Notes: generated by a model not told the origin, from the letters alone. 64,000 nucleotides of DNA from Calditrichaceae bacterium (GCA_050173015.1 JBFXLE010000013.1:1-64000), one strand, 5' to 3'; shown: positions 8,968 to 19,515, numbered from the stretch's first letter. Numbers and translations: made by a program.

Positions 8968-10131
8968 TTAACGCTTGAAGAAATCGTTGACTACCGTTTC
9001 AAGCTCTTTCTCTTTTAATCCCGATAGTTCACCAATATAAAGATGTCCGTCAGCCGGAAATTTATCTTCATCTTTGGTCGCGATCACTACTTTTTTGATA
9101 AATTCCTGCACCCGCTTTATGTCGGTATGATAAAAACTTACCGCGCTTTCACCGATTTTTAAATCTTTGATCTCTAAATCAAGCTGTGATGATTCCAGTT
9201 TACAAATCCAGTTTTTATCATATGTGGTAGTATCAAGTCTGTCAAGATCATCAAGCAGCGCTTTGTTAATCTTTTCCACTTTCCCGGATACAGGAGCATT
9301 GAACGGGATGGAATGTGTACCCTGCCGGATACTGAAAAGATTTTGTCCTTTTTTGATTTCCATGCCCAGATTGGGAAGTTCAATGGAATCAATCTTGCCG
9401 ATCAATTTTTTTGCAAAATCATCAATGCCCACATTCACTTTTCCGTCCTGGTCTATTCCCGCCCAGCAGTGGCCTTCTGATATGAAAACACCACCGGGGA
9501 TGGAGAATTCCACAGATGCCGGAATCTGAGTGTCTGTAAGATGAGTTATGTTGACCTGCGGAACCAGCTGACGATGGATACGCTCCTGTCTTTTGAACAG
9601 TGATTTTTTGATCATCGCGAGTAATTCATCTTCAGTAAAGGGTTTCTGAACATAATCCAATGCGCCGAATTTCATGGTCTCAACGGCCGTTTCCACGGAC
9701 GCGTAGCCGGTAATAATGATCACATCAATATCAGGCCGCAAATGTTTTACGCTTTTGCATACATCTACACCGTCCATTTCGGGCATTTTAAGATCGACAA
9801 ATACAAAATCGTAATGGTGTTTTTGTATTAATCCTAATGCCTCTTGTCCCGATTGAACCGTATCGACACAATATCCGTCAAGGACTAGAATTTTTCTGAA
9901 GCTGTCAAGAATTACCGCCTCATCATCGACGGCAAGAATTTTAGCTTTAGGATTATCAACTTCAACGCGTTTAAGGCTTTTAGCCTCATGAGTGAAATCA
10001 AGATTCAGGCTTACTTTTAGCGCTTCCTCGCGTTCACTTAAAATTCTTTTTGTGTTCACTTTTTTGATGATCATGCGAATGACGATATCTGCAATCACAA
10101 AAAGAATGACTGCTAATACTAAAAATAGCAT
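8968..10131 (-). CDS. Membrane-anchored response regulator: TM-REC-GcvH-like domain (no lipoyl Lys)
   Basis: Hydrophobic aa 1-22; REC motifs VDDE, D113 (FVDLKMP), TGY, KPF; C-terminal HCWAG..VGIDDFA..IELP..APVSGKV..IN..NWI resembles glycine cleavage H protein. Confidence 0.85.
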   Translation of the reverse strand: MLFLVLAVILFVIADIVIRMIIKKVNTKRILSEREEALKVSLNLDFTHEAKSLKRVEVDNPKAKILAVDDEAVILDSFRKILVLDGYCVDTVQSGQEALGLIQKHHYDFVFVDLKMPEMDGVDVCKSVKHLRPDIDVIIITGYASVETAVETMKFGALDYVQKPFTEDELLAMIKKSLFKRQERIHRQLVPQVNITHLTDTQIPASVEFSIPGGVFISEGHCWAGIDQDGKVNVGIDDFAKKLIGKIDSIELPNLGMEIKKGQNLFSIRQGTHSIPFNAPVSGKVEKINKALLDDLDRLDTTTYDKNWICKLESSQLDLEIKDLKIGESAVSFYHTDIKRVQEFIKKVVIATKDEDKFPADGHLYIGELSGLKEKELETVVNDFFKR

Positions 10132-10202
10132 TTTGTGGCTCCTTGGATAAGATTACATTTATAATCACATTCTAAGTTTTATTAATTTTTATTGTTCTCC
10201 TG

Positions 10203-11009
10203 TTAAATCCTGTCAGAGCTGCAGGGTGTTAAATGCTTTAATTCGTACTCAAGATCAGAAGGAATGATACGATAAAACCACCCTTTAAAATATGGATCCT
10301 TTTCGATAATCTGTTTATCTTTTAACAAGTGATCATTTATTTCTATGATTCTGCCCGTCATCGGCGCGAGAATATTGTGCACAATGCTATCAGAAGTGAC
10401 AAGTTGGGCGCATGCATTGCCCTGAACAATTTCCTCATCCATGTTTGCGAGTTCTATATGGTCGATGCTGTCAACCGTTCTCAAAAGCAAATCAGTTATG
10501 CCCGTTAATACAGAACCGTCGTGTTCAATGTACAACCAGCTTCCATAGCCAAGACGGAAATATTTTGCTGGACAAGGGACATAGATAATCGATGAATCAT
10601 TTTTTATTAAATTTGCTGATTTTAATGATTTATTTATTTCAGCATATTTTAAACCCCTGAAAACAGAACTCAACAGTTCATCTACCGTAAACGGTTTTGG
10701 CAGAAAATCTATCGCGCCCGTATATAAGGATTTTACGGCGTTCTCTACTGTGGAATACCCGGTAGTCATTATCACCGGAGAATCCAGATTCTGAGGTATA
10801 ATCTCATCAAGAAACATAAATCCATCCATCTCGGGAAGCATAATATCACAGATAATCAGCCGATACTGATTTTTTGCTATTTTATTCAATCCTTCAGTCG
10901 CGTCAAGTGAAGAATCAACACTAAATCCTTCAGTGCTGCATAGCTTGATTACGGAATCAATAATCACCTGTTCATCATCAATAATAAGTATGTCATAATC
11001 TTTGCTCAT
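10203..11009 (-). CDS. Soluble response regulator: REC-GcvH-like domain (no lipoyl Lys)
   Basis: REC motifs IDDE, D55 (CDIMLP), TGY, KPF; C-terminal SW..GITD..IEL..APMTGRIIEIN..DPYFKGWFYRI is GcvH-like. Confidence 0.85.
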   Translation of the reverse strand: MSKDYDILIIDDEQVIIDSVIKLCSTEGFSVDSSLDATEGLNKIAKNQYRLIICDIMLPEMDGFMFLDEIIPQNLDSPVIMTTGYSTVENAVKSLYTGAIDFLPKPFTVDELLSSVFRGLKYAEINKSLKSANLIKNDSSIIYVPCPAKYFRLGYGSWLYIEHDGSVLTGITDLLLRTVDSIDHIELANMDEEIVQGNACAQLVTSDSIVHNILAPMTGRIIEINDHLLKDKQIIEKDPYFKGWFYRIIPSDLEYELKHLTPCSSDRI

Positions 11010-11023
11010 ATGGATTCCTGATT

Positions 11024-12895
11024 TTAACTAGCCGACCTGGTGGCCGGGATTCTTATCGTAAAGGTTGTGCCTTCCCCAATATTGCTGTCAACGGTAATGG
11101 TACCGTTATGATTGTCAATAATCCCCCAGATAACCGCAAGACCTAACCCGGTTCCCCGTTGCCCCTTTGTTGAATAAAAAGGTTCAAATATGCGGTAGAG
11201 ATTTTCTTTGGGTATGCCGCAACCGGAGTCAGAGATTTTAACTTCTATAAATTCTTTTTTCCCTTCCAGTTCAATCATCTTCCAGTTTTGCCAGCCGCAA
11301 TCTCTGTTTGTGCAGCCTACAAACTCACCCTGTGTCGGGATTTCAAATGAATATACAGAAGATGCGCATTTTGGGCACTTGTTGTTTTTTTCGATCAGCG
11401 AAACATCGCAATGCGGGCACATTAACTGAAGTGTCTTGTTCTTGCTATATTCGATACCGAAATAATGTCTCGATTTTCCATAGATAGGGTCAAGATTTAC
11501 AATACCGGAGCTGCCGTTTGAAAGAGCTTTTAATTTTATCGAAGGTAAACCGTCTATTTTAATTTCATTGTCGATAAGGCTGTGTCCCTTCGGGCACGCG
11601 GCTCGCTTGATTTGCATATAACCTTTAGGCGGCACATACAGTAGCGTTGTTGACACATTTATGTTTCCACCGTTCTTCCCGATGGCGTCATTCGCATTGA
11701 CTACCAGATTTATAAATACCTGTTCAATCTGATTGGCGTCGATGGTTACTCTTGGCAATTTTAAATCAAGATTTTTAACAATTTTAACATTGTTAATGGC
11801 AAGCTGGTTCTCTACCACACCGATCGCGTGATTAAGTATTTCATTGATGTTTGCATTATTCTTTTTCGGAACCGATTGTCTGGCAAAATCAAGCAGTCCT
11901 TTTACAATTTCCCTGCTTCTTTTTGTTTCTCTGACAATGACTTCCAAATCTGACTGCAAATCGGAATTACCCTTGGTTCTCTTTAACAAAAAACTGCTGT
12001 AAGTTAAGATTCCGGTCAACGGATTGTTAATCTCATGCGCGACACCGGCGGCGAGACGGCCAAGCGATGCCAGTTTATCCGACTGGAATAACTGCATTCT
12101 GGCTTCAGATAATTTTTGAGTCATATTGTTAAATGAACGGGCAAGCATTCCCAATTCATCATTGCTGTGTTCTTTGATCGTGTAGCTCAGGTTTCCGGCA
12201 GCGACATTTTTTGTAGCCTGAAGAAGCGTATTCACCGGCTTGTCCACTAAACTTCTCACGAAGTACCATACCGTCCCACTCAATAGAATGATGGCAATGA
12301 TGGCGAACATAAGCATCTTGAATTTTGTTGATGCAATTTGATTATCAATTGCCTTGATGGAAATAGTGACATCAAGGACACCCAGCACTGTCCTTTCAGA
12401 TGGGTGCGCATGGCATTGGGCTTCCCAGCAGGATGGTTCATTATAAATCGGATTAATGATACCTAACACCCTTGAAGAATCGGGGGCTAATTTATAGACA
12501 CGCGTGCGCTTGTCAATCTCAAGTTTTTCCAGGGGTTTATTGGCCGCGTGGCAAGCATAGCATGCTTCGGTTTTTTTATCAACCATATGGCCGATGGCGG
12601 TGGTATCAGAAGAATAGATGATCTCACCTTCTTTATTAAAAACCCTGACTTCATTGATGCATGGTTGATTCCCGATGGTCTGTATAATGTTATGAATATG
12701 CGCGCGTTCGTTAAGAAGCATCCCGTATCTTGTGCTGTTCTTCACCGTTTCGCTTAACTGATTGACATGCCTCTCCACCTCATCAAAAAGAGCCTTGCTC
12801 TGAGATTGCACATTCAGATAGGCAAATACGAAGATGATGATAATGGTAGCCGTTCCCACAGCTGAAATTAATTTGAATCCTATTTTCTTGAACAT
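11024..12895 (-). CDS. Sensor histidine kinase with periplasmic heme-c motifs, HAMP, HisKA and HATPase with Cys-rich insertion
   Basis: Two TM helices flanking CYACH and CWEAQCH; HAMP (DELGMLARSFNNM); H-box AHEINNPL; N-box NLVVNANDA; DSGCGI, FEPFYSTK, GTGLGL. Confidence 0.92.
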   Translation of the reverse strand: MFKKIGFKLISAVGTATIIIIFVFAYLNVQSQSKALFDEVERHVNQLSETVKNSTRYGMLLNERAHIHNIIQTIGNQPCINEVRVFNKEGEIIYSSDTTAIGHMVDKKTEACYACHAANKPLEKLEIDKRTRVYKLAPDSSRVLGIINPIYNEPSCWEAQCHAHPSERTVLGVLDVTISIKAIDNQIASTKFKMLMFAIIAIILLSGTVWYFVRSLVDKPVNTLLQATKNVAAGNLSYTIKEHSNDELGMLARSFNNMTQKLSEARMQLFQSDKLASLGRLAAGVAHEINNPLTGILTYSSFLLKRTKGNSDLQSDLEVIVRETKRSREIVKGLLDFARQSVPKKNNANINEILNHAIGVVENQLAINNVKIVKNLDLKLPRVTIDANQIEQVFINLVVNANDAIGKNGGNINVSTTLLYVPPKGYMQIKRAACPKGHSLIDNEIKIDGLPSIKLKALSNGSSGIVNLDPIYGKSRHYFGIEYSKNKTLQLMCPHCDVSLIEKNNKCPKCASSVYSFEIPTQGEFVGCTNRDCGWQNWKMIELEGKKEFIEVKISDSGCGIPKENLYRIFEPFYSTKGQRGTGLGLAVIWGIIDNHNGTITVDSNIGEGTTFTIRIPATRSAS

Positions 12896-13059: not shown

Positions 13060-14223
13060 TTAAAGTTTTGATTTTATCAAGCTACCGGGTTTTTTCGCCG
13101 GATACTTATAATCATCATGACAGTTGTCACATGTTGGTTTTTTGTTAAAATTGGAATCAATATGACATGATTCACAATCCATGGAACCATGGTTTTCATC
13201 AAGTACTAATCCGGTTACACGATGCTTAAAGGATTCAGGATTCCAGTTTTTGTGACAGCTTGTGCATGTAGGTTTCAAACTTGAAAAGATTTTACTCTCG
13301 CCATGACAAGTCTGACATTTTAAGGATGCGTGATAGCTTTTGAGAGGCCATTTTGCAGTAACCGAATGGTCAAACGGACCTTTTTGCTCACTGCTGTGAC
13401 ATTTGGTACAAGCATCATCAGCGTGACAGGCGAAACAGCTCTCATGTTTTTCATCAGCTGATTTCTTAACAGTTATCGGCTTGGCCGGGGCGGCCTGCTC
13501 TTTATAAGTTGATTTTGAAAGGTCGTGACAGCGACTGCAGCTCTCATTTGTATGACAATCCACACATTTAAATCCAAACTTTCCTGAATGTTCATTATGA
13601 TAGAAAGTTACATATTTACCCTCTTTGGCCGCGGTTTCGTACACCACTTTATCCGGTTCTTTAATTTTTGGATGTTTTGAGCCAATAATATCGCTTTTAT
13701 CCATAATCTTTGCATCGGGAACTTCCGTCCCTTTTAAAGCATGGCATACATTGCAGTCCGTTGTATGGCTCCATTCGCGGTGACAGCTTAAACACTGCCG
13801 GTGGTAAGCGCCTTTTAGACCCGGTTTACTAAGATCATCTCTCATGGGCGCTACTTCGTGGCATTCCTTACACGCGGCGATTCTACCGGGAGGGTTATGA
13901 TGATGACATGACACACAGCTTCCGGACATTTGTCCCATTTCAGCATGCAACTTATGCGGGAAAACGGTCGGTTCGTAAATATTAGATAAAATATCAATGT
14001 TTAATGTGTCGGGTCCCTCTTCAGGGGTATGGTGAATTGTTACCACATTCCGTTTGAATTCAGGACAGCATGTTAAACATGGGTCCGCTTCCGTCGGGTT
14101 ATCACAGCTGTGACAGGATTTGCAATCCAGGGCAAGTTTAGAATGATGCTCTTTGCTCACAGTCTGAGCAAACAACGGGGTAATGATGAGTAAAAAGCCA
14201 ATAATCAGATTTAATTTTTTCAT
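13060..14223 (-). CDS. Periplasmic multiheme cytochrome c (13 CxxCH; cytochrome c3-like domains)
   Basis: Sec signal; CKSCH, CVSCH, CKECH, CLSCH, CNVCH, CVDCH, CSRCH, CFACH, CTKCH, CQTCH, CTSCH, CESCH, CDNCH; FxHxxH distal-ligand motifs; LKGAYHRQC. Confidence 0.93.
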   Translation of the reverse strand: MKKLNLIIGFLLIITPLFAQTVSKEHHSKLALDCKSCHSCDNPTEADPCLTCCPEFKRNVVTIHHTPEEGPDTLNIDILSNIYEPTVFPHKLHAEMGQMSGSCVSCHHHNPPGRIAACKECHEVAPMRDDLSKPGLKGAYHRQCLSCHREWSHTTDCNVCHALKGTEVPDAKIMDKSDIIGSKHPKIKEPDKVVYETAAKEGKYVTFYHNEHSGKFGFKCVDCHTNESCSRCHDLSKSTYKEQAAPAKPITVKKSADEKHESCFACHADDACTKCHSSEQKGPFDHSVTAKWPLKSYHASLKCQTCHGESKIFSSLKPTCTSCHKNWNPESFKHRVTGLVLDENHGSMDCESCHIDSNFNKKPTCDNCHDDYKYPAKKPGSLIKSKL

Positions 14224-15464
14224 TTTGAAACCCCTCGAATAGCGAATTTTGTTTTTGGCTTATATCCTTTAACCGGTTGGCTTATCACAGGGAAAATCAA
14301 AACAAGTGCGCGGTACAATAATACTTCGAGAGCGATAAAGCCTACCGTGACGGAAATTTCACCGATTGACGGGAAATATGAATTCATTGCGTAAGGGGGT
14401 GTGTAGGCAATGAGAAATGTATTAATTCTGTTTAACAAAACTCCGAATATCACTAAAAGTGAGGCGGTAAACAACCAGTTTGGCGACTTCAGAGCTTTAT
14501 TCGAGAGGAAAATCCTTAGAGGGATGATCACGCCAAACAGCATTTCTATAATAAACATGATGCTTTCGAGATTGAAATCCAATAAATAGACATATGTTTC
14601 GCGTATAACCATGTCCCCTATTTTAAAGGCAAGGTAAATTCCCAACAATGGGCCTATTATCCGTCCTAAATTGGAGAGTACATGCATTTCCCTTTTTAAG
14701 CCGAAGGATTTTGAAGCGATCATGGACTCAAGGACGACCATTGGAAAACCCACTGAGATCGCTGAAAGTAAAAACAAAAGCGGCGCGATTGGAGTTTGCC
14801 AAAGAGGGTGAATCTTAGAACCTGCTAAGATCATCAGTGTTCCGAGTGATGACTGATGCAGACAGGATAGCACAACACCGGCAATCAAAAAGATAAACAT
14901 AAACGGATTCAGAATTTTATCAAGAAATTTTAACAGGGATTCCAAAGGTTTTACAAGGCCTGCCAGAAACCCGTTTAAATGCACCTGTCCTTTGAATCGT
15001 TCAATGACAACGGGGATAAATTCAATGTATAAAACAGTAAGATATGTCATGACGCATATACCTACTTCGAACAGCGCTGAATTCCCGTTCCACATATACA
15101 TAACGTGATAAATAGAATAATATCGTCCAAGGTCAATAAAAACTCCAAGAGCGACAAAGGTATATCCCAACATGGCTGTTAGCAGAGCGGGGCGCACTAT
15201 CACGTGATAGTCTCCTCTGTGGAAAACATGTCCGAGGGCGGCAGTCGTAAAACCTCCCGCGGCAAGGGCTACCCCCGCGGCCACATCAATGCCGATCCAG
15301 ATACCCCATGGGTGCTGATTATCCAGATTGGTCACAGCGCCGAGTCCAAAGACGAATCTCATCAACGCGAATATCAGGCCGTTTACAGCTAGTATCGTCA
15401 AGAAAATTACACCGGGTGTAAAAAATTTTTTTTCAATACGAGCAGGTTTAATCATTTCTTCCAT
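14220..15464 (-). CDS. NrfD/HybB/HmcC-family quinone-interacting membrane subunit
   Basis: PWGIWIGIDV..GVALAAGGF, DLGRY, SALFEV, LHQSSLG; about 10 TM helices. Confidence 0.92.
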   Translation of the reverse strand: MEEMIKPARIEKKFFTPGVIFLTILAVNGLIFALMRFVFGLGAVTNLDNQHPWGIWIGIDVAAGVALAAGGFTTAALGHVFHRGDYHVIVRPALLTAMLGYTFVALGVFIDLGRYYSIYHVMYMWNGNSALFEVGICVMTYLTVLYIEFIPVVIERFKGQVHLNGFLAGLVKPLESLLKFLDKILNPFMFIFLIAGVVLSCLHQSSLGTLMILAGSKIHPLWQTPIAPLLFLLSAISVGFPMVVLESMIASKSFGLKREMHVLSNLGRIIGPLLGIYLAFKIGDMVIRETYVYLLDFNLESIMFIIEMLFGVIIPLRIFLSNKALKSPNWLFTASLLVIFGVLLNRINTFLIAYTPPYAMNSYFPSIGEISVTVGFIALEVLLYRALVLIFPVISQPVKGYKPKTKFAIRGVSK

Positions 15465-15473
15465 TATCGCCTC

Positions 15474-16367
15474 CTACTCAACTTCTTCTTTGTTCTTATT
15501 GATCCACATGATACCGCCAAGAAGCGCATAAAGAGATACCGGTGGGATAAAATATTTAAATATTGCGTGCTGAATGGCTTCCGAAACACCTGGCGCCGGG
15601 TTTTCAGCTAATTTTGGGAAATCCAGATCAGAGAAATCTGTCGATGAAAGATACAACCATGATGTTCCGCCGACTTCTTTCTCACCGTAAATATGGTCAA
15701 AATATTTATCGGGATTTTTACTGATTCTTTCACGGGCGATTTTTAGCAGATCGGAACGTTTGCCAAAGGTCAGAGCTTCCACCGGACACATTTCTACACA
15801 TGCCGGAAGCAAACCTTCTTTTGTTCTTTCAAAACAAAAATCACATTTTTGTACCTGTGGTGTGAGGGCATTTTTGTACTCATAGGATGGAATCTGAAAA
15901 GGACAGGCGACCATACAGTAACGGCAGCCGATACACTTGTTGACATCATAGATCACTGATCCGTTCTCTTCTTTGGAAAACGCGCCTACAATACATGCGG
16001 ACACGCAAGCCGGGTGATCGCAGTGCATGCACTGAACCTTGACGTTTATGGGATATTTGCCCCCGTTATTGTTGTCATATTCATTAACAACAGTGTGACC
16101 GTCAATATCCGGCCTTCTTAAATTTTTGAAAACTGACCGGTCATCATAAGATTCAATGGATCCGGTAGGGAAATCATGCGCCTTTTTGCAGGCATACTCA
16201 CATTTGCGGCAACCAATGCAGACAGTTGTATCAACCAGGACACCGTTCCTGTCTTCCAGCAACACATTCTTTGGGGCGGCCTTCGCCTGTTTGGCTCCCA
16301 CACCGGTTAAACCGGCACCGACCAATCCGGCGGTTTTGAAAAAATCGCGTCGGCTCTGTTTACCCAT
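15474..16367 (-). CDS. Tat-exported 4x[4Fe-4S] protein, HybA/HmcB family
   Basis: SRRDFFK Tat signal; CIGCRKCEYAC, CMHCDHPACVSAC, CIGCRYCMVACP, CDFC..PACVEMCP; C-terminal TM anchor. Confidence 0.93.
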   Translation of the reverse strand: MGKQSRRDFFKTAGLVGAGLTGVGAKQAKAAPKNVLLEDRNGVLVDTTVCIGCRKCEYACKKAHDFPTGSIESYDDRSVFKNLRRPDIDGHTVVNEYDNNNGGKYPINVKVQCMHCDHPACVSACIVGAFSKEENGSVIYDVNKCIGCRYCMVACPFQIPSYEYKNALTPQVQKCDFCFERTKEGLLPACVEMCPVEALTFGKRSDLLKIARERISKNPDKYFDHIYGEKEVGGTSWLYLSSTDFSDLDFPKLAENPAPGVSEAIQHAIFKYFIPPVSLYALLGGIMWINKNKEEVE

Positions 16368-16483: not shown

Positions 16484-16499
16484 AGCAAAAGTTGTGCCT
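16484..16499 (-). promoter_or_regulatory. Sigma-54 (-24/-12) promoter of the FeS/NrfD/cytochrome operon
   Basis: Minus strand AGGCACAACTTTTGCT = GG-N10-GC, matching TGGCAC-N5-TTGC, about 117 bp upstream of the ATG. Confidence 0.72.
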
Positions 16500-17143: not shown

Positions 17144-18022
17144 ATGTATAAAATTGTAGAAGCCGGCTTTCTTGCGGAAAATATTAAACGATTTGTGATT
17201 CAAGCGCCGAGAATTGCCAGTAAACGAAAAGCGGGTCAGTTTGTCATTATAAGAATTGACGATCATGGTGAAAGAATCCCTCTAACCATCGCGGATTCTG
17301 ATAAAGAAAAGGGAACGATTACGATTATTGTCCAGGGAATTGGAAAAACGACAACCGCGCTGAATATGAAAGAAGCGGGAGATCAGATACTGGATGTGGT
17401 CGGGCCTTTGGGACATGAATCTGAAATTGAAAAATTTGGTACTGTCGTCAGTATTGGCGGTGGTGTGGGAACGGCGATTGCATTTCCGACAGCCGTTGCC
17501 CTAAAAGATGCCGGAAATTATGTAATTACCATTAACGGCGCCAGAAACAAAGATATGGTTATCCTGGAAGACGAGATGCGGTCGGTCAGTGATGAAGCAT
17601 ATGTTACTACAGATGACGGATCCTATGGTTTCCACGGTTTTGTAACCCAGAAACTGCAGGAATTGCTCGATTCCGGCAAAAAGATTGATTTTGTTCTGGC
17701 CATCGGTCCGATCCCGATGATGAAAGCGGTCGCTGAGGTCACACGTCCTTTTAATATTAAAACAGTTGTCAGTTTAAATCCCATTATGGTTGATGGTACC
17801 GGAATGTGCGGTGGGTGCCGGGTTGTCGTGGGTAATGAGTCTAAGTTTGCCTGTGTTGACGGTCCGGAATTTGACGCGCATCTTGTTGATTTCAAAAATC
17901 TTTCCGACCGAAACAAGATGTACGCAAAATACGAGAACTTATCATTGCAAAAATTTAAGCATGAATGCAATCTGGATAAACAGGCTAAGGCGCATAAGGA
18001 ACTAGAGCAGGTTGAGAGCTGA
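17144..18022 (+). CDS. nfnA: NfnA (NfnS), small subunit of electron-bifurcating transhydrogenase
   Basis: GQFVI, ERIPLTI, GGGVG, DGTGMCGGCR and CVDGPEF [2Fe-2S] motif; adjacent to an NfnB-like gene. Confidence 0.9.
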   Translation: MYKIVEAGFLAENIKRFVIQAPRIASKRKAGQFVIIRIDDHGERIPLTIADSDKEKGTITIIVQGIGKTTTALNMKEAGDQILDVVGPLGHESEIEKFGTVVSIGGGVGTAIAFPTAVALKDAGNYVITINGARNKDMVILEDEMRSVSDEAYVTTDDGSYGFHGFVTQKLQELLDSGKKIDFVLAIGPIPMMKAVAEVTRPFNIKTVVSLNPIMVDGTGMCGGCRVVVGNESKFACVDGPEFDAHLVDFKNLSDRNKMYAKYENLSLQKFKHECNLDKQAKAHKELEQVES

Positions 18023-18087
18023 TCCAGGTATTTGGAAATCTAATAATATTCATAAGAATTAATTCTAAATAAAAAAATGGTGAACGA

Positions 18088-19515
18088 ATGCAGAAGTTGA
18101 CAGCAAAAGAACGTATGAAAATTGCCCGGCATCCGATGGTCGAACAGGATCATGTTGAGCGGGGACATAATTTTAAAGAAGTTAACCTGGGATACACTAC
18201 CCAGATGGCACAGGAAGAGGCGATGAGATGTTTACAGTGCGCTAAACCGACATGTGTACAGGGGTGTCCGGTTAATATTCAAATAAAGGATTTTGTTACT
18301 TTGATCGCGGAAGGTGATTTTATCGGCGCCGTGCATAAAATCAAAGAAGATAATGCACTCCCCGCGATTTGCGGGCGTGTTTGTCCGCAGGAAGAGCAGT
18401 GTGAACAGGTTTGTGTAGTGGCGAAGAGAGGCGAGCCTGTCGCGATTGGAAATCTGGAACGGTTCGTGGCTGATTTTGAAAGGACAAGCGGAAAAGTCGA
18501 ACTGCCGCGGGTAGGAGCCCCGACAGGGAAAAAAGTAGCTATTGTGGGAAGCGGTCCGGCGGGATTAAGCTGCGCTAAAGATATGATTCAGATGGGACAT
18601 AAAGTGACCGTATTTGAAGCGCTCCATGAGTTGGGCGGGGTACTGGTGTATGGGATTCCGGAATTCCGTCTGCCGAAAGATATCGTGCGGCAGGAGATCG
18701 AAGGTCTGCAAAAAATGGGTGTTGAATTTGTGACCGATGCCGTAATCGGAAGAACTACCACGATTGATGAACTGATGGAAGAAGAAGGATACGACTCCGT
18801 GTTTGTCGGCGTAGGCGCGGGACTTCCCTGGTTTCTCGGAATTCCGGGCGAAAATCTGATCGGTGTTTATTCAGCAAATGAATTTCTTACACGTGTAAAT
18901 TTAATGAAGGCATACGATTTCCCAAATTACGATTCGCCGATTTTAGACTGCAAAGATAAAAATATTGCTGTTTTCGGTGGCGGCAACACCGCGATGGATT
19001 CAGTACGTACCGCGCTGAGGCTCGGAGCGAAAAACGCGTATATTGTCTATCGCCGTTCCGACAAAGAAATGCCCGCGCGCGCTGAGGAAGTAAAACATGC
19101 CAAGGAAGAAGGCATTCAGTTTTTGATGCTGACTAATCCCCTTGAATTTGTCGGAGACGAAAACGGCTGGTTAAATTCCATGAGATGCATCAAAATGGAA
19201 TTAGGCGAACCTGATGCATCCGGTCGGCGACGTCCGGTTCCTATTGATGATTCGGAGTTTGTCATGGATATAGATATGGCCGTGATTGCCATCGGCAACG
19301 GATCAAATCCCCTTATCAAACAAACTTCACCGGAAATCGAGTTTACTAAACGCGGTACGATCGCCGTTGACAGTGAGACCATGAAAACTTCAAAAAAAGG
19401 TGTTTTTGCCGGCGGGGATATTGTAACAGGCGGGGCAACGGTCATTCTGGCGATGGGGGCCGGTCGAAAAGCCGCAGCCGCCATGAATGATTTTATGAAT
19501 ACCGGTAACTGGTAG
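18088..19515 (+). CDS. nfnB: NfnB (NfnL), GltD-like large subunit (often annotated as homotetrameric gltA)
   Basis: RCLQC..CVQGCP, CGRVCPQEEQCE, GSGPAGL, GGGNTAMD, YRR, GGDIVTG; no gltB nearby. Confidence 0.88.
   Translation: MQKLTAKERMKIARHPMVEQDHVERGHNFKEVNLGYTTQMAQEEAMRCLQCAKPTCVQGCPVNIQIKDFVTLIAEGDFIGAVHKIKEDNALPAICGRVCPQEEQCEQVCVVAKRGEPVAIGNLERFVADFERTSGKVELPRVGAPTGKKVAIVGSGPAGLSCAKDMIQMGHKVTVFEALHELGGVLVYGIPEFRLPKDIVRQEIEGLQKMGVEFVTDAVIGRTTTIDELMEEEGYDSVFVGVGAGLPWFLGIPGENLIGVYSANEFLTRVNLMKAYDFPNYDSPILDCKDKNIAVFGGGNTAMDSVRTALRLGAKNAYIVYRRSDKEMPARAEEVKHAKEEGIQFLMLTNPLEFVGDENGWLNSMRCIKMELGEPDASGRRRPVPIDDSEFVMDIDMAVIAIGNGSNPLIKQTSPEIEFTKRGTIAVDSETMKTSKKGVFAGGDIVTGGATVILAMGAGRKAAAAMNDFMNTGNW

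Follow-up and report, generated by a model that had tools for sequence, protein, structure and literature searches.

Lysine-less H-protein-like domains fused to receivers as candidate partners of an FeS-NrfD quinone module in a Calditrichaceae bacterium

Introduction

What does a glycine-cleavage H-protein fold do when its lipoyl lysine is missing and a receiver domain precedes it? The question is raised by two adjacent genes at positions 8,968-11,009 of a 64,000-nucleotide stretch of DNA from a Calditrichaceae bacterium (GCA_050173015.1, JBFXLE010000013.1:1-64000; this whole stretch is called the window below). They encode a soluble response regulator of 268 residues (A) and a membrane-anchored one of 387 residues (B), each carrying an H-protein-like (H-like) domain, and they form the end of a six-gene cluster that also encodes a sensor histidine kinase and the iron-sulphur (FeS), NrfD-type and multihaem cytochrome subunits of a quinone module. 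The answer we favour, with about even confidence, is that the H-like domains of A and B are lysine-less cytoplasmic accessory partners of FeS-NrfD quinone modules, brought under direct phosphorylation control by fusion to receivers. The functional statements made here rest on sequence, predicted structure and gene neighbourhood, with the operon context as the chief pointer to what the proteins do.

In many anaerobic respiratory enzymes the anchor is an NrfD-type subunit, which a review of these complexes describes as the presumed site of ion translocation (PMC8076601). Post-assembly regulation of NrfD-type complexes is largely unknown, and the cluster described here is a conserved, compact candidate for it, in which the H-like domain stands as a receiver output domain without a described function.

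Results

A and B combine a receiver with an H-protein fold

The two genes and their domains map to the window as follows.

10203-11009 (-): gene 5, A, 268 residues; soluble response regulator with a receiver and a lysine-less H-protein-like domain
10662-10991 (-): receiver domain of A, residues 7-116 (Pfam), with D11, D12, D55, T83 and K105
10236-10541 (-): H-like domain of A, Pfam residues 157-258, with the Ser208 codon at 10386-10388
8968-10131 (-): gene 6, B, 387 residues; membrane-anchored response regulator with a transmembrane helix, a receiver, a lysine-less H-like domain and a helical C-terminal extension
10066-10131 (-): N-terminal transmembrane helix of B, residues 1-22 (hydropathy and AlphaFold2), followed by basic residues
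9607-9939 (-): receiver domain of B, residues 65-175 (Pfam), with D69, D70, D113, T141 and K163
9142-9477 (-): H-like domain of B, residues 219-330, with the Thr272 codon at 9316-9318
8971-9141 (-): C-terminal helical extension of B, ending ...DFF (AlphaFold2 helices 328-348 and 374-385), common to receiver-less, membrane-anchored H-like proteins of the H2 type

Pfam scans recognise both families in each protein, Response_reg (PF00072, cut-off 30.2 bits) with E-values of 5.4e-25 in A (88.2 bits) and 2e-30 in B (105.6 bits), and GCV_H (PF01597, cut-off 22.2 bits) with E-values of 1e-15 in A (58.2 bits) and 2.1e-18 in B (66.8 bits). These matches are not due to chance. No DNA-binding or enzymatic output domain was found in A or B by Pfam and NCBIfam scans. 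The acidic pair, phospho-accepting Asp, Thr and Lys of the receivers are invariant among 54 aligned A sequences and 50 aligned B sequences. A and B are paralogs that share 34% identity over 262 residues spanning both domains, and a whole-genome scan found exactly three GCV_H genes.

The C-terminal halves adopt the H-protein hybrid-barrel fold in prediction. Searched with phmmer against the PDB, that of A matches 12 sequences (best E 5.3e-13) and that of B 14 (best E 1.4e-11), all of them H-proteins bar one weak match to NqrA, and A and B are 25-30% identical to solved H-proteins. The AlphaFold models have mean predicted local distance difference test (pLDDT) values of 82.9 for A and 82.0 for B. 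In Foldseek the top match of the A model is E. coli apo-H (3a7a_B; TM-score 0.82, root-mean-square deviation of 2.0 Å over 116 columns), and ranks 1-8 for the B model are the E. coli, bovine and Thermus H-proteins (TM-score 0.87-0.91). The predicted structures deviate from solved H-proteins by 1.5-2.1 Å, and the structures matched (TM-score 0.82-0.91) include H-protein in complex with T-protein and with LplA.

The two proteins differ in their relation to the membrane. Residues 1-19 of B are hydrophobic (hydropathy 2.79) and lie within a helix predicted by AlphaFold2 (residues 2-42), and the part of B that follows the transmembrane helix is predicted to be cytoplasmic by the positive-inside rule; a hydropathy scan of A found no hydrophobic segment. 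The first-pass annotation of this DNA, which had proposed a receiver with a full set of phosphorylation residues joined to an H-type domain in both proteins, one membrane-anchored and the other soluble, is borne out on each of these points.

A predicted complex of A residues 135-268 with the cytoplasmic part of B (residues 46-387) gave a score of 0.01 against a mark of 0.32, and weighs neither way. For the possible A-B heterodimer raised in the first-pass annotation there is one indirect hint. A 675-residue protein present on 5 contigs (P0196) joins an A-type to a B-type sequence in the local gene order, with a transmembrane helix in mid-protein; it could be a real fusion or the result of a missed stop codon. 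Among 122 candidate longer fused forms of the A H-like domain none was significant, a weak negative since P0196 exists.

Loss of the lipoyl lysine is a trait of both families

In phmmer alignments with the E. coli and Thermus H-proteins the place of their lipoyl lysine is taken by Ser208 in A and Thr272 in B, and a MAFFT alignment that includes the genome's own true GcvH places the same two residues in the same lysine column. No lysine is present within six residues on either side (A 202-214, B 266-278). The column is occupied by Glu in 43, Gly in 40 and Asp in 20 of 120 A-family sequences and by Thr in 59, Asn in 19 and Arg in 11 of 119 B-family sequences, other residues making up the rest and Lys occurring in only 5 of the B family. 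On these alignments, loss of the lysine is a family trait of A and B. The domains should therefore be non-lipoylated, the lysine being missing, and the earlier assignment of Thr272 and Ser208 to the lipoyl site agrees with both the alignments and the codons. The hairpin tip is the least constrained stretch of the H-like domain, while the core motifs of the H fold are retained; its variability across the family fits a non-lipoylated, repurposed fold, as the first-pass annotation had suggested.

Other residues are held more firmly. Cys146 and Cys263 never vary in the A family, where Cys200 (94%) and His211 (96%) are nearly as constant and a conserved PCSSDR motif forms the C-terminus. The Cys-bearing tails of A have pLDDT values below 50 in the AlphaFold model (residues 143-147 and 265-268) and are probably flexible. 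The B family keeps His221 and Cys310 without exception, with 82% conservation of Cys222. On average an H-like domain contains 3.1 Cys in A, 2.0 in B, 0.9 in the H1 type and 0.1 in the H2 type.

The genome's true GcvH has 129 residues, contains the lysine and is encoded on contig C17 beside a gcvP-like open reading frame (ORF), A and B being on contig C13. In the region L001:1495-3250 (minus strand) its gene comes directly after a biotin carboxylase (AccC-like) ORF and before the gcvP-like ORF. The genome also holds three genes of the BPL_LplA_LipB family.

A and B close a conserved six-gene cluster

Upstream of A and B on the same strand lie four genes, giving the order FeS protein, NrfD-type subunit, cytochrome, kinase, A and B.

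15474-16367 (-): gene 1, 297 residues; 4Fe-4S protein (HybA/HmcB-like), exported by the twin-arginine translocation (Tat) pathway and anchored by its C-terminal tail (Fer4_11, E 1.1e-22)
14220-15464 (-): gene 2, 414 residues; NrfD/HybB/HmcC-like integral membrane quinone-interacting subunit (Pfam NrfD, E 3.7e-20)
13060-14223 (-): gene 3, 387 residues; periplasmic multihaem cytochrome c (Pfam Cytochrom_CIII, Cytochrome_C7 and c3_2)
11024-12895 (-): gene 4, 623 residues; sensor histidine kinase (transmembrane helix, periplasmic domain, transmembrane helix, HAMP, HisKA, HATPase_c)

The genes are closely packed, with gaps of 9 bp between genes 1 and 2, 164 bp between genes 3 and 4, 14 bp between genes 4 and 5 and 71 bp between genes 5 and 6, and a 4 bp overlap of the NrfD and cytochrome genes. 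The product of gene 1 has a weak TAT_signal match (Pfam), an SRRDFFK twin-arginine motif and a hydrophobic C-terminal tail; that of gene 2 has about 10 hydrophobic segments by hydropathy; and that of gene 3 has 13 CxxCH motifs and a signal-like N-terminal helix. Among the six genes of the cluster we found no HmcD, HmcE or HmcF and no hydrogenase catalytic subunit, and the flanking genes are unrelated.

The cluster is conserved as a unit. Loci were collected by a search with the A-family alignment; of its 600 pattern matches 519 were confirmed, the top 80 were retained, and the cluster proteins were located in them by tblastn. Since these loci come from related genomes, they do not give independent counts. 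In 77 of the 80 loci B is the next gene after A, the other three ending at a contig edge, and a kinase match is present in 75, those of L038 and L067 being weak and non-adjacent. Where at least 5.5 kb upstream of A is available (55 loci), the complete collinear cluster is found in 50; of the remainder four have a paralogous FeS/NrfD set and one (L067) has no adjacent kinase match that passes the filter. Carriers belong to Calditrichia, Ignavibacteria, Melioribacteraceae, Gemmatimonadota and KSB1. By comparison, the outer flanking genes are not conserved, no family being present in more than 18 of the 50 loci, and L004, from the same species, is the only locus that repeats the window's own flanks (murI, a porin, obg, dprA and an Nfn/GltD-like pair).

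Relatives of A and B number in the hundreds. They are 94-97% identical in a same-species Calditrichaceae bin and 58-76% identical in bins of Ignavibacteria, Calditrichia, Melioribacteraceae, KSB1 and Gemmatimonadota, and this level of identity across phyla indicates strong constraint. A/B-type matches (best E no greater than 1e-38) occur in 36 of 86 genomes of the window's phylum, nearly always paired about 1 kb apart, and A/B-type pairs occur in 11 genomes of a 151-genome sample of the phylum of Rosettibacter primus, a cultured isolate that has the full cluster (L064). In public annotation these genes appear as 'response regulator' or 'glycine cleavage system protein H'.

Several features of the surroundings were recorded alongside. 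Divergent from the cluster, at 17144-19515 (+), lies this pair, which resembles NfnAB/GltD-type oxidoreductases (DHODB_Fe-S_bind/FAD/NAD; Fer4_20 with Pyr_redox_2) and is conserved beside the cluster only in the same-species locus. In 13 of 50 loci, the window not being one of them, B is followed after about 190 bp by a Macro-domain gene in the same orientation (for example L006:11272-11799 (+), Pfam E 6.6e-50). Macro domains also accompany GcvH-L in Firmicutes operons; the pairing with B could equally be lineage synteny. In L084 the A gene is split into ORFs of 113 and 165 residues (L084:8906-9701) and in L098 several cluster genes are fragmented, which may reflect decay or assembly errors. 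A sigma54-type -24/-12 element was considered as the cluster promoter and dropped, as such an element precedes the FeS gene in only 4 of 49 loci, where chance would give about 2.4. The sole one-mismatch match in the window lies at 16484-16499 (-), about 120 nucleotides upstream of gene 1, and is present in the same-species locus; the window-wide count of 21 against 24.1 expected is at the level of chance. Promoter-like sites between 8700 and 17300 are in slight excess (35 against 24.0 expected, standard deviation 4.7), with nothing usable among them.

Receiver-less H-like proteins also accompany FeS-NrfD pairs

The association of H-like genes with FeS-NrfD pairs extends beyond the receiver fusions. 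When the H-like domains of A and B were combined in a profile and compared with 1.84 billion representative sequences, it matched 9520 proteins at E no greater than 1e-3 and 31 at E no greater than 1e-30, and classes were drawn from the best 150. One class, of about 230 residues, has a short N-terminal extension and consists of a transmembrane helix and an H-like domain, with the C-terminal extension in some members. In L084 the six-gene cluster is followed by an H-like gene (226 residues), a Tat-FeS gene, an NrfD gene, a second H-like gene (252 residues), a kinase and a sigma54 regulator, and each of the two short H-like proteins has a transmembrane helix, an H-like domain and a helical extension. 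Among 13 loci of the window's phylum fetched for an H-like ORF of about 220-290 residues, 11 have the same H-like/FeS/NrfD/H-like order; one of the two exceptions begins at a contig edge and the other is a broken copy of the six-gene cluster. The extended loci L084 and L085 likewise have receiver-less H-like genes flanking the FeS-NrfD pair. An independent fetch from a second phylum gave the same association, with 7 of 8 receiver-less H-like ORFs beside an FeS-NrfD pair, usually with a second H-like gene.

Two further arrangements were seen. In L016 an extra B-like receiver-H-like gene, a small c7-type cytochrome, a Tat-FeS gene and an NrfD gene lie directly upstream of the kinase-A-B block (Pfam), and the tblastn profiles of L066, L070 and L074 resemble it. 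In L006 a divergent H-like/FeS/NrfD operon lies upstream of the cluster, with matching upstream clusters in 16-18 of 50 loci. H-fold genes thus keep company with FeS-NrfD pairs in four different gene arrangements.

One of the receiver-less proteins bears on the origin of B. The C-terminal half of B aligns with the second H-like protein of L084 (P0392, of the H2 type) over 177 residues through the terminal DFF motif (BLASTP E 5e-22), and because the alignment runs end to end B looks like an H2-type protein that has acquired a receiver behind its membrane helix.

The H-like family also has members elsewhere. An H-like class of about 150-160 residues (L099-L103; G049, G050, G054, G052 and G063) groups with true GcvH in a quick tree and often has two copies about 6 kb apart; none of 7 loci of the class of about 155 residues had FeS/NrfD neighbours. 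A class of about 560 residues with PBP_like_2 and a C-terminal GCV_H domain (P0284-P0390) has Gly at the lysine column in 56 of 56 sequences with a Lys directly after it, and owing to this adjacent Lys the loss is not certain there; a cluster of this type is mostly from Bacteroidota (Protein Atlas). Otherwise the Protein Atlas returned generic GCV_H clusters alone, with feature scores of 0.81, under the lead threshold. Two large proteins combine the fold with redox domains, P0242 (1391 residues; three GCV_H, FAD oxidase, Fer4 and two CCG domains) and P0356 (receiver, GCV_H and a 4Fe-4S dicluster, Fer4_8), and by their domain content they link the H-like fold to Hdr/GlpC-like redox chemistry.

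The kinase carries two putative haem motifs and a Cys-rich insert

Three features of the kinase are of particular concern.

12548-12562 (-): periplasmic CxxCH (CYACH, residues 112-116), a c-type haem-binding motif
12410-12430 (-): periplasmic CX4CH (CWEAQCH, residues 156-162), a second putative haem site
11276-11638 (-): Cys-rich insert of about 125-140 residues in the ATPase domain (C434, C493, C496, C507, C510 and C528), zinc-ribbon-like

Hydrophobic segments at residues 4-22 and 186-204 bracket the two haem motifs, whose four Cys are conserved in all 63 aligned kinases. The natural reading is that the kinase is a periplasmic c-type-haem sensor, with haem presumably attached at these motifs. 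The six Cys of the insert are 98% conserved among the 63 kinases paired with receiver-H-like genes, and the insert has a weak Pfam DZR match; it may be a docking site.

Kinases beside the receiver-less H-like genes (type II) share the sensor. The CxxCH and CX4CH pair is present in 11 of 11, and one of them is 35% identical to the window kinase over 421 alignment columns that include the periplasmic domain. This type II kinase lacks the insert: BLASTP aligns residues 22-409 and 550-617, and residues 410-549 of the window kinase (140 residues) stand opposite about 14. Most type II loci have a sigma54-type regulator after or beside the kinase, as do 4 of the 8 loci of the second phylum; in a fifth locus of that phylum (L114) kinase and regulator are present with no FeS/NrfD match. 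In contrast, the window-type cluster has no DNA-binding regulator, and instead there are receivers on both H-like proteins and an insert in the kinase. Receiver fusion, insert and absence of the regulator therefore co-vary. The simplest reading is that direct phosphorylation of the H-fold partners of the module has taken over from transcription as the means of control.

Discussion

A proposed phosphorylation switch

The observations suggest the following sequence of events. Through its c-type haem the kinase would read the redox state of, or a ligand at, the periplasmic complex of 13-haem cytochrome, FeS and NrfD-type subunits, and would then phosphorylate the receivers of both A and B, a phosphotransfer to which their neighbourhood points. 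The H-fold domains of A and B would lie, by predicted topology, at the cytoplasmic face of the membrane, where phosphorylation would alter their engagement of a target. The likeliest target would be the NrfD-type complex, with the kinase or the paralog as alternatives, and the altered engagement would tune activity or assembly of the complex post-translationally and not via transcription. The bacterial EIIA-Glc protein offers a functional analogy for a cofactor-free hybrid-fold domain of this kind. A bolder form of the proposal holds that lysine-less H-fold proteins are an unrecognised class of cytoplasmic subunits of NrfD-type complexes, and that receiver fusion made of them a direct phospho-switch gating quinone turnover or ion coupling within seconds and with no transcription factor; this is possible but doubtful.

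Several points weigh against these proposals. The binding target of the H-fold domains is read from gene neighbourhood alone, and the counts on which that neighbourhood is judged overstate independence, the loci being drawn from related genomes. The abstract of the NrfD review lists no cytoplasmic H-fold partner for the characterised complexes (PMC8076601), and the cluster encodes no redox route to the cytoplasm. Terminator-like sites between 8700 and 17300 are at the level of chance (7 against 7.2 expected). A has no membrane anchor, and its near-invariant Cys146, Cys200, His211 and Cys263 are unexplained by the model. Finally, the domain tree, a quick search with support values from the Shimodaira-Hasegawa-like approximate likelihood-ratio test (SH-aLRT) only, does not resolve how A, B, H1 and H2 are related at its deep nodes.

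Alternative roles for the H-like domains

Four other roles can be set against an accessory partnership with the quinone module. The first, which we consider unlikely, places the kinase at the centre: the H-fold would dock on the kinase, for example on the Cys-rich insert, and A and B would shape signalling as a phosphate sink, scaffold or connector. Two receivers per kinase are a common phosphate-sink layout, and the insert occurs in kinases paired with receiver-H-like proteins and is missing from the sigma54-paired type II kinase. However, H-like proteins without receivers stand beside FeS-NrfD pairs in loci where the kinase has no insert, which makes the insert an unlikely ancestral partner for the H-fold. 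Nor does a sink need a conserved output of 130 residues, and conservation of the H-like domains matches that of the receivers.

Replacement of the lipoyl arm by thiols in A and perhaps in B, the conserved Cys on flexible tails acting as a swinging arm or switch in a carrier or redox relay, is in our judgement improbable. It would account for the invariant and near-invariant Cys and His of A with its PCSSDR terminus and low-confidence tails, and for those of B. Such an arm would resemble the C-terminal Cys arm of SoxY, and the C-terminal Cys arm of DsrC is a further analogy. Related H-like domains do occur in the redox fusions P0356 and P0242, and LbpA provides a precedent in the two extra conserved Cys described for it (PMC6067878). 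Against this, the Cys are not common across the family, falling from a mean of 3.1 in A to 0.1 in H2, and cannot for this reason be the general function of NrfD-associated H-like proteins. In addition, the cluster encodes no cytoplasmic thiol/disulfide enzyme (HdrD/DsrK-like), and no Hdr/CCG-domain gene is found among its six genes.

A role in biogenesis, with the H-like proteins as chaperones for cofactor loading, Tat proofreading or membrane insertion of the FeS and NrfD proteins and phosphorylation gating the process, seems to us distinctly improbable. Dedicated cytoplasmic chaperones of Tat redox substrates are well known, and H-like genes co-occur with Tat-dependent, C-tail-anchored FeS proteins (twin-arginine motifs were present in all four FeS N-termini inspected), yet the FeS protein of the L006 type has no room for a signal peptide and still has an H-like neighbour. 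A membrane anchor, two paralogs per module and a dedicated redox-sensing kinase better suit a standing component, and no Tat chaperone is known to have an H-protein fold.

Very improbable is the decoy proposed in the first-pass annotation, in which the lysine-less fold competes with GcvH for the P, T and L proteins or for lipoate ligases and phosphorylation throttles the pathway: the H-fold core is well preserved, to the point of matching H-protein bound to T-protein and to LplA (TM-score 0.82-0.91), and the genome has both a true GcvH and three BPL_LplA_LipB-family genes on which a decoy could act, but A and B never occur with gcv genes, being locked to the kinase and the cytochrome/FeS/NrfD module, and have no genomic link to glycine-cleavage or lipoylation genes (the true GcvH lies on another contig by gcvP), the arm-presenting hairpin is the least conserved part of the domain, and the FeS/NrfD link holds across all four operon arrangements.

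If A and B are indeed accessory partners of the quinone module, the consequences reach beyond this genome. The cluster suggests an undescribed way to switch a respiratory complex directly by phosphorylation, with a haem-based periplasmic sensor wired directly to two proteins that are probably at the cytoplasmic face of the complex, and the H-protein fold gains a role that excludes lipoate. Hundreds of genes of Ignavibacteria, Calditrichia, Gemmatimonadota and KSB1 that at present bear the label 'response regulator' or 'glycine cleavage system protein H' are given a context, and the system is testable, since cultured Rosettibacter primus has the full cluster.

Comparison with known systems

The redox half of the cluster has clear counterparts. 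The Hmc (its HmcABC part), Nhc and hydrogenase-2 HybAB modules contain the same three redox parts, a Tat-exported, C-tail-anchored FeS protein, a cofactor-less NrfD/HybB-like subunit and a periplasmic multihaem cytochrome, and such modules are listed among NrfD complexes in the review of these systems (PMC8076601). Similar complexes of Melioribacter roseus are proposed to be quinol:acceptor reductases in the account given of them (PMC9386147). The cluster differs from Hmc and Nhc in that its cytochrome has 13 haem motifs and not 8, 9 or 16 and in that HmcD, HmcE and HmcF are absent, and it misses every NCBIfam equivalog cut-off for HmcB, HmcC, HybA and HybB: the product of gene 1 scores 341 bits as HmcB (cut-off 420) and 255.5 as HybA (cut-off 263), and that of gene 2 363.7 bits as HybB-type (cut-off 450) and 265.9 as HmcC (cut-off 550). 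A three-gene unit of FeS protein, HybB-like quinol oxidase and cytochrome c is also described in a study of Tat tail-anchored proteins, which reports no conserved pattern of flanking genes in its own dataset (bioRxiv 10.1101/2023.11.02.564894); in the present cluster, by contrast, a haem-type kinase and two receiver-H-like genes are fixed to the module.

Among H-fold proteins, GcvH belongs to the same Pfam family and has the same fold. A and B differ from it in lacking the lipoyl lysine, in having the domain C-terminal to a receiver and in having no gcv neighbours, and with 68.5 and 65.1 bits they do not reach the cut-off of 117 bits of the NCBIfam GcvH models (NF002270/TIGR00527). LbpA of the sHdr system and GcvH-L of S. 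aureus are likewise H-fold proteins recruited outside glycine cleavage, but both keep the lysine. In LbpA it is lipoylated and strictly conserved among the 95 LbpA proteins reported (PMC6067878), consistent with the distinction from LbpA made in the first-pass annotation. The same report describes one strictly conserved Cys near each terminus of LbpA that is missing from GcvH (PMC6067878), a pattern that resembles the Cys146 and Cys263 that flank the H-like domain of family A, the likeness being one of description; B, H1 and H2 are without these Cys. LbpA is moreover a stand-alone protein encoded with hdr-like genes, whereas A and B are receiver fusions encoded with FeS/NrfD genes.

Response regulators with protein-binding outputs are like A and B in having a full set of receiver residues, an adjacent cognate-looking kinase and no DNA-binding or enzymatic output; the literature search turned up no account of an H-protein fold in the output role, and one of the pair here is membrane-anchored. 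The N-terminal domains of NqrA and RnfC are lysine-less barrel-sandwich-hybrid folds on cytoplasmic subunits of membrane redox complexes, and B has weak matches to NQRA_N (E 0.0072) and RnfC_N (E 0.051) over about 35 residues of the hairpin region, below the Pfam cut-offs. The Nqr and Rnf complexes are nevertheless unrelated, and receiver control is not known there. Descriptions of receiver-H-protein fusions or of H-like genes with NrfD modules were not found in the literature search, outside which supplements lay, and the words glycine, lipoyl and response regulator have 0 occurrences in the main text of the NrfD review (PMC8076601). The two-component system and the NrfD-type module are each known; what is new is their joining by an undescribed output or accessory domain.

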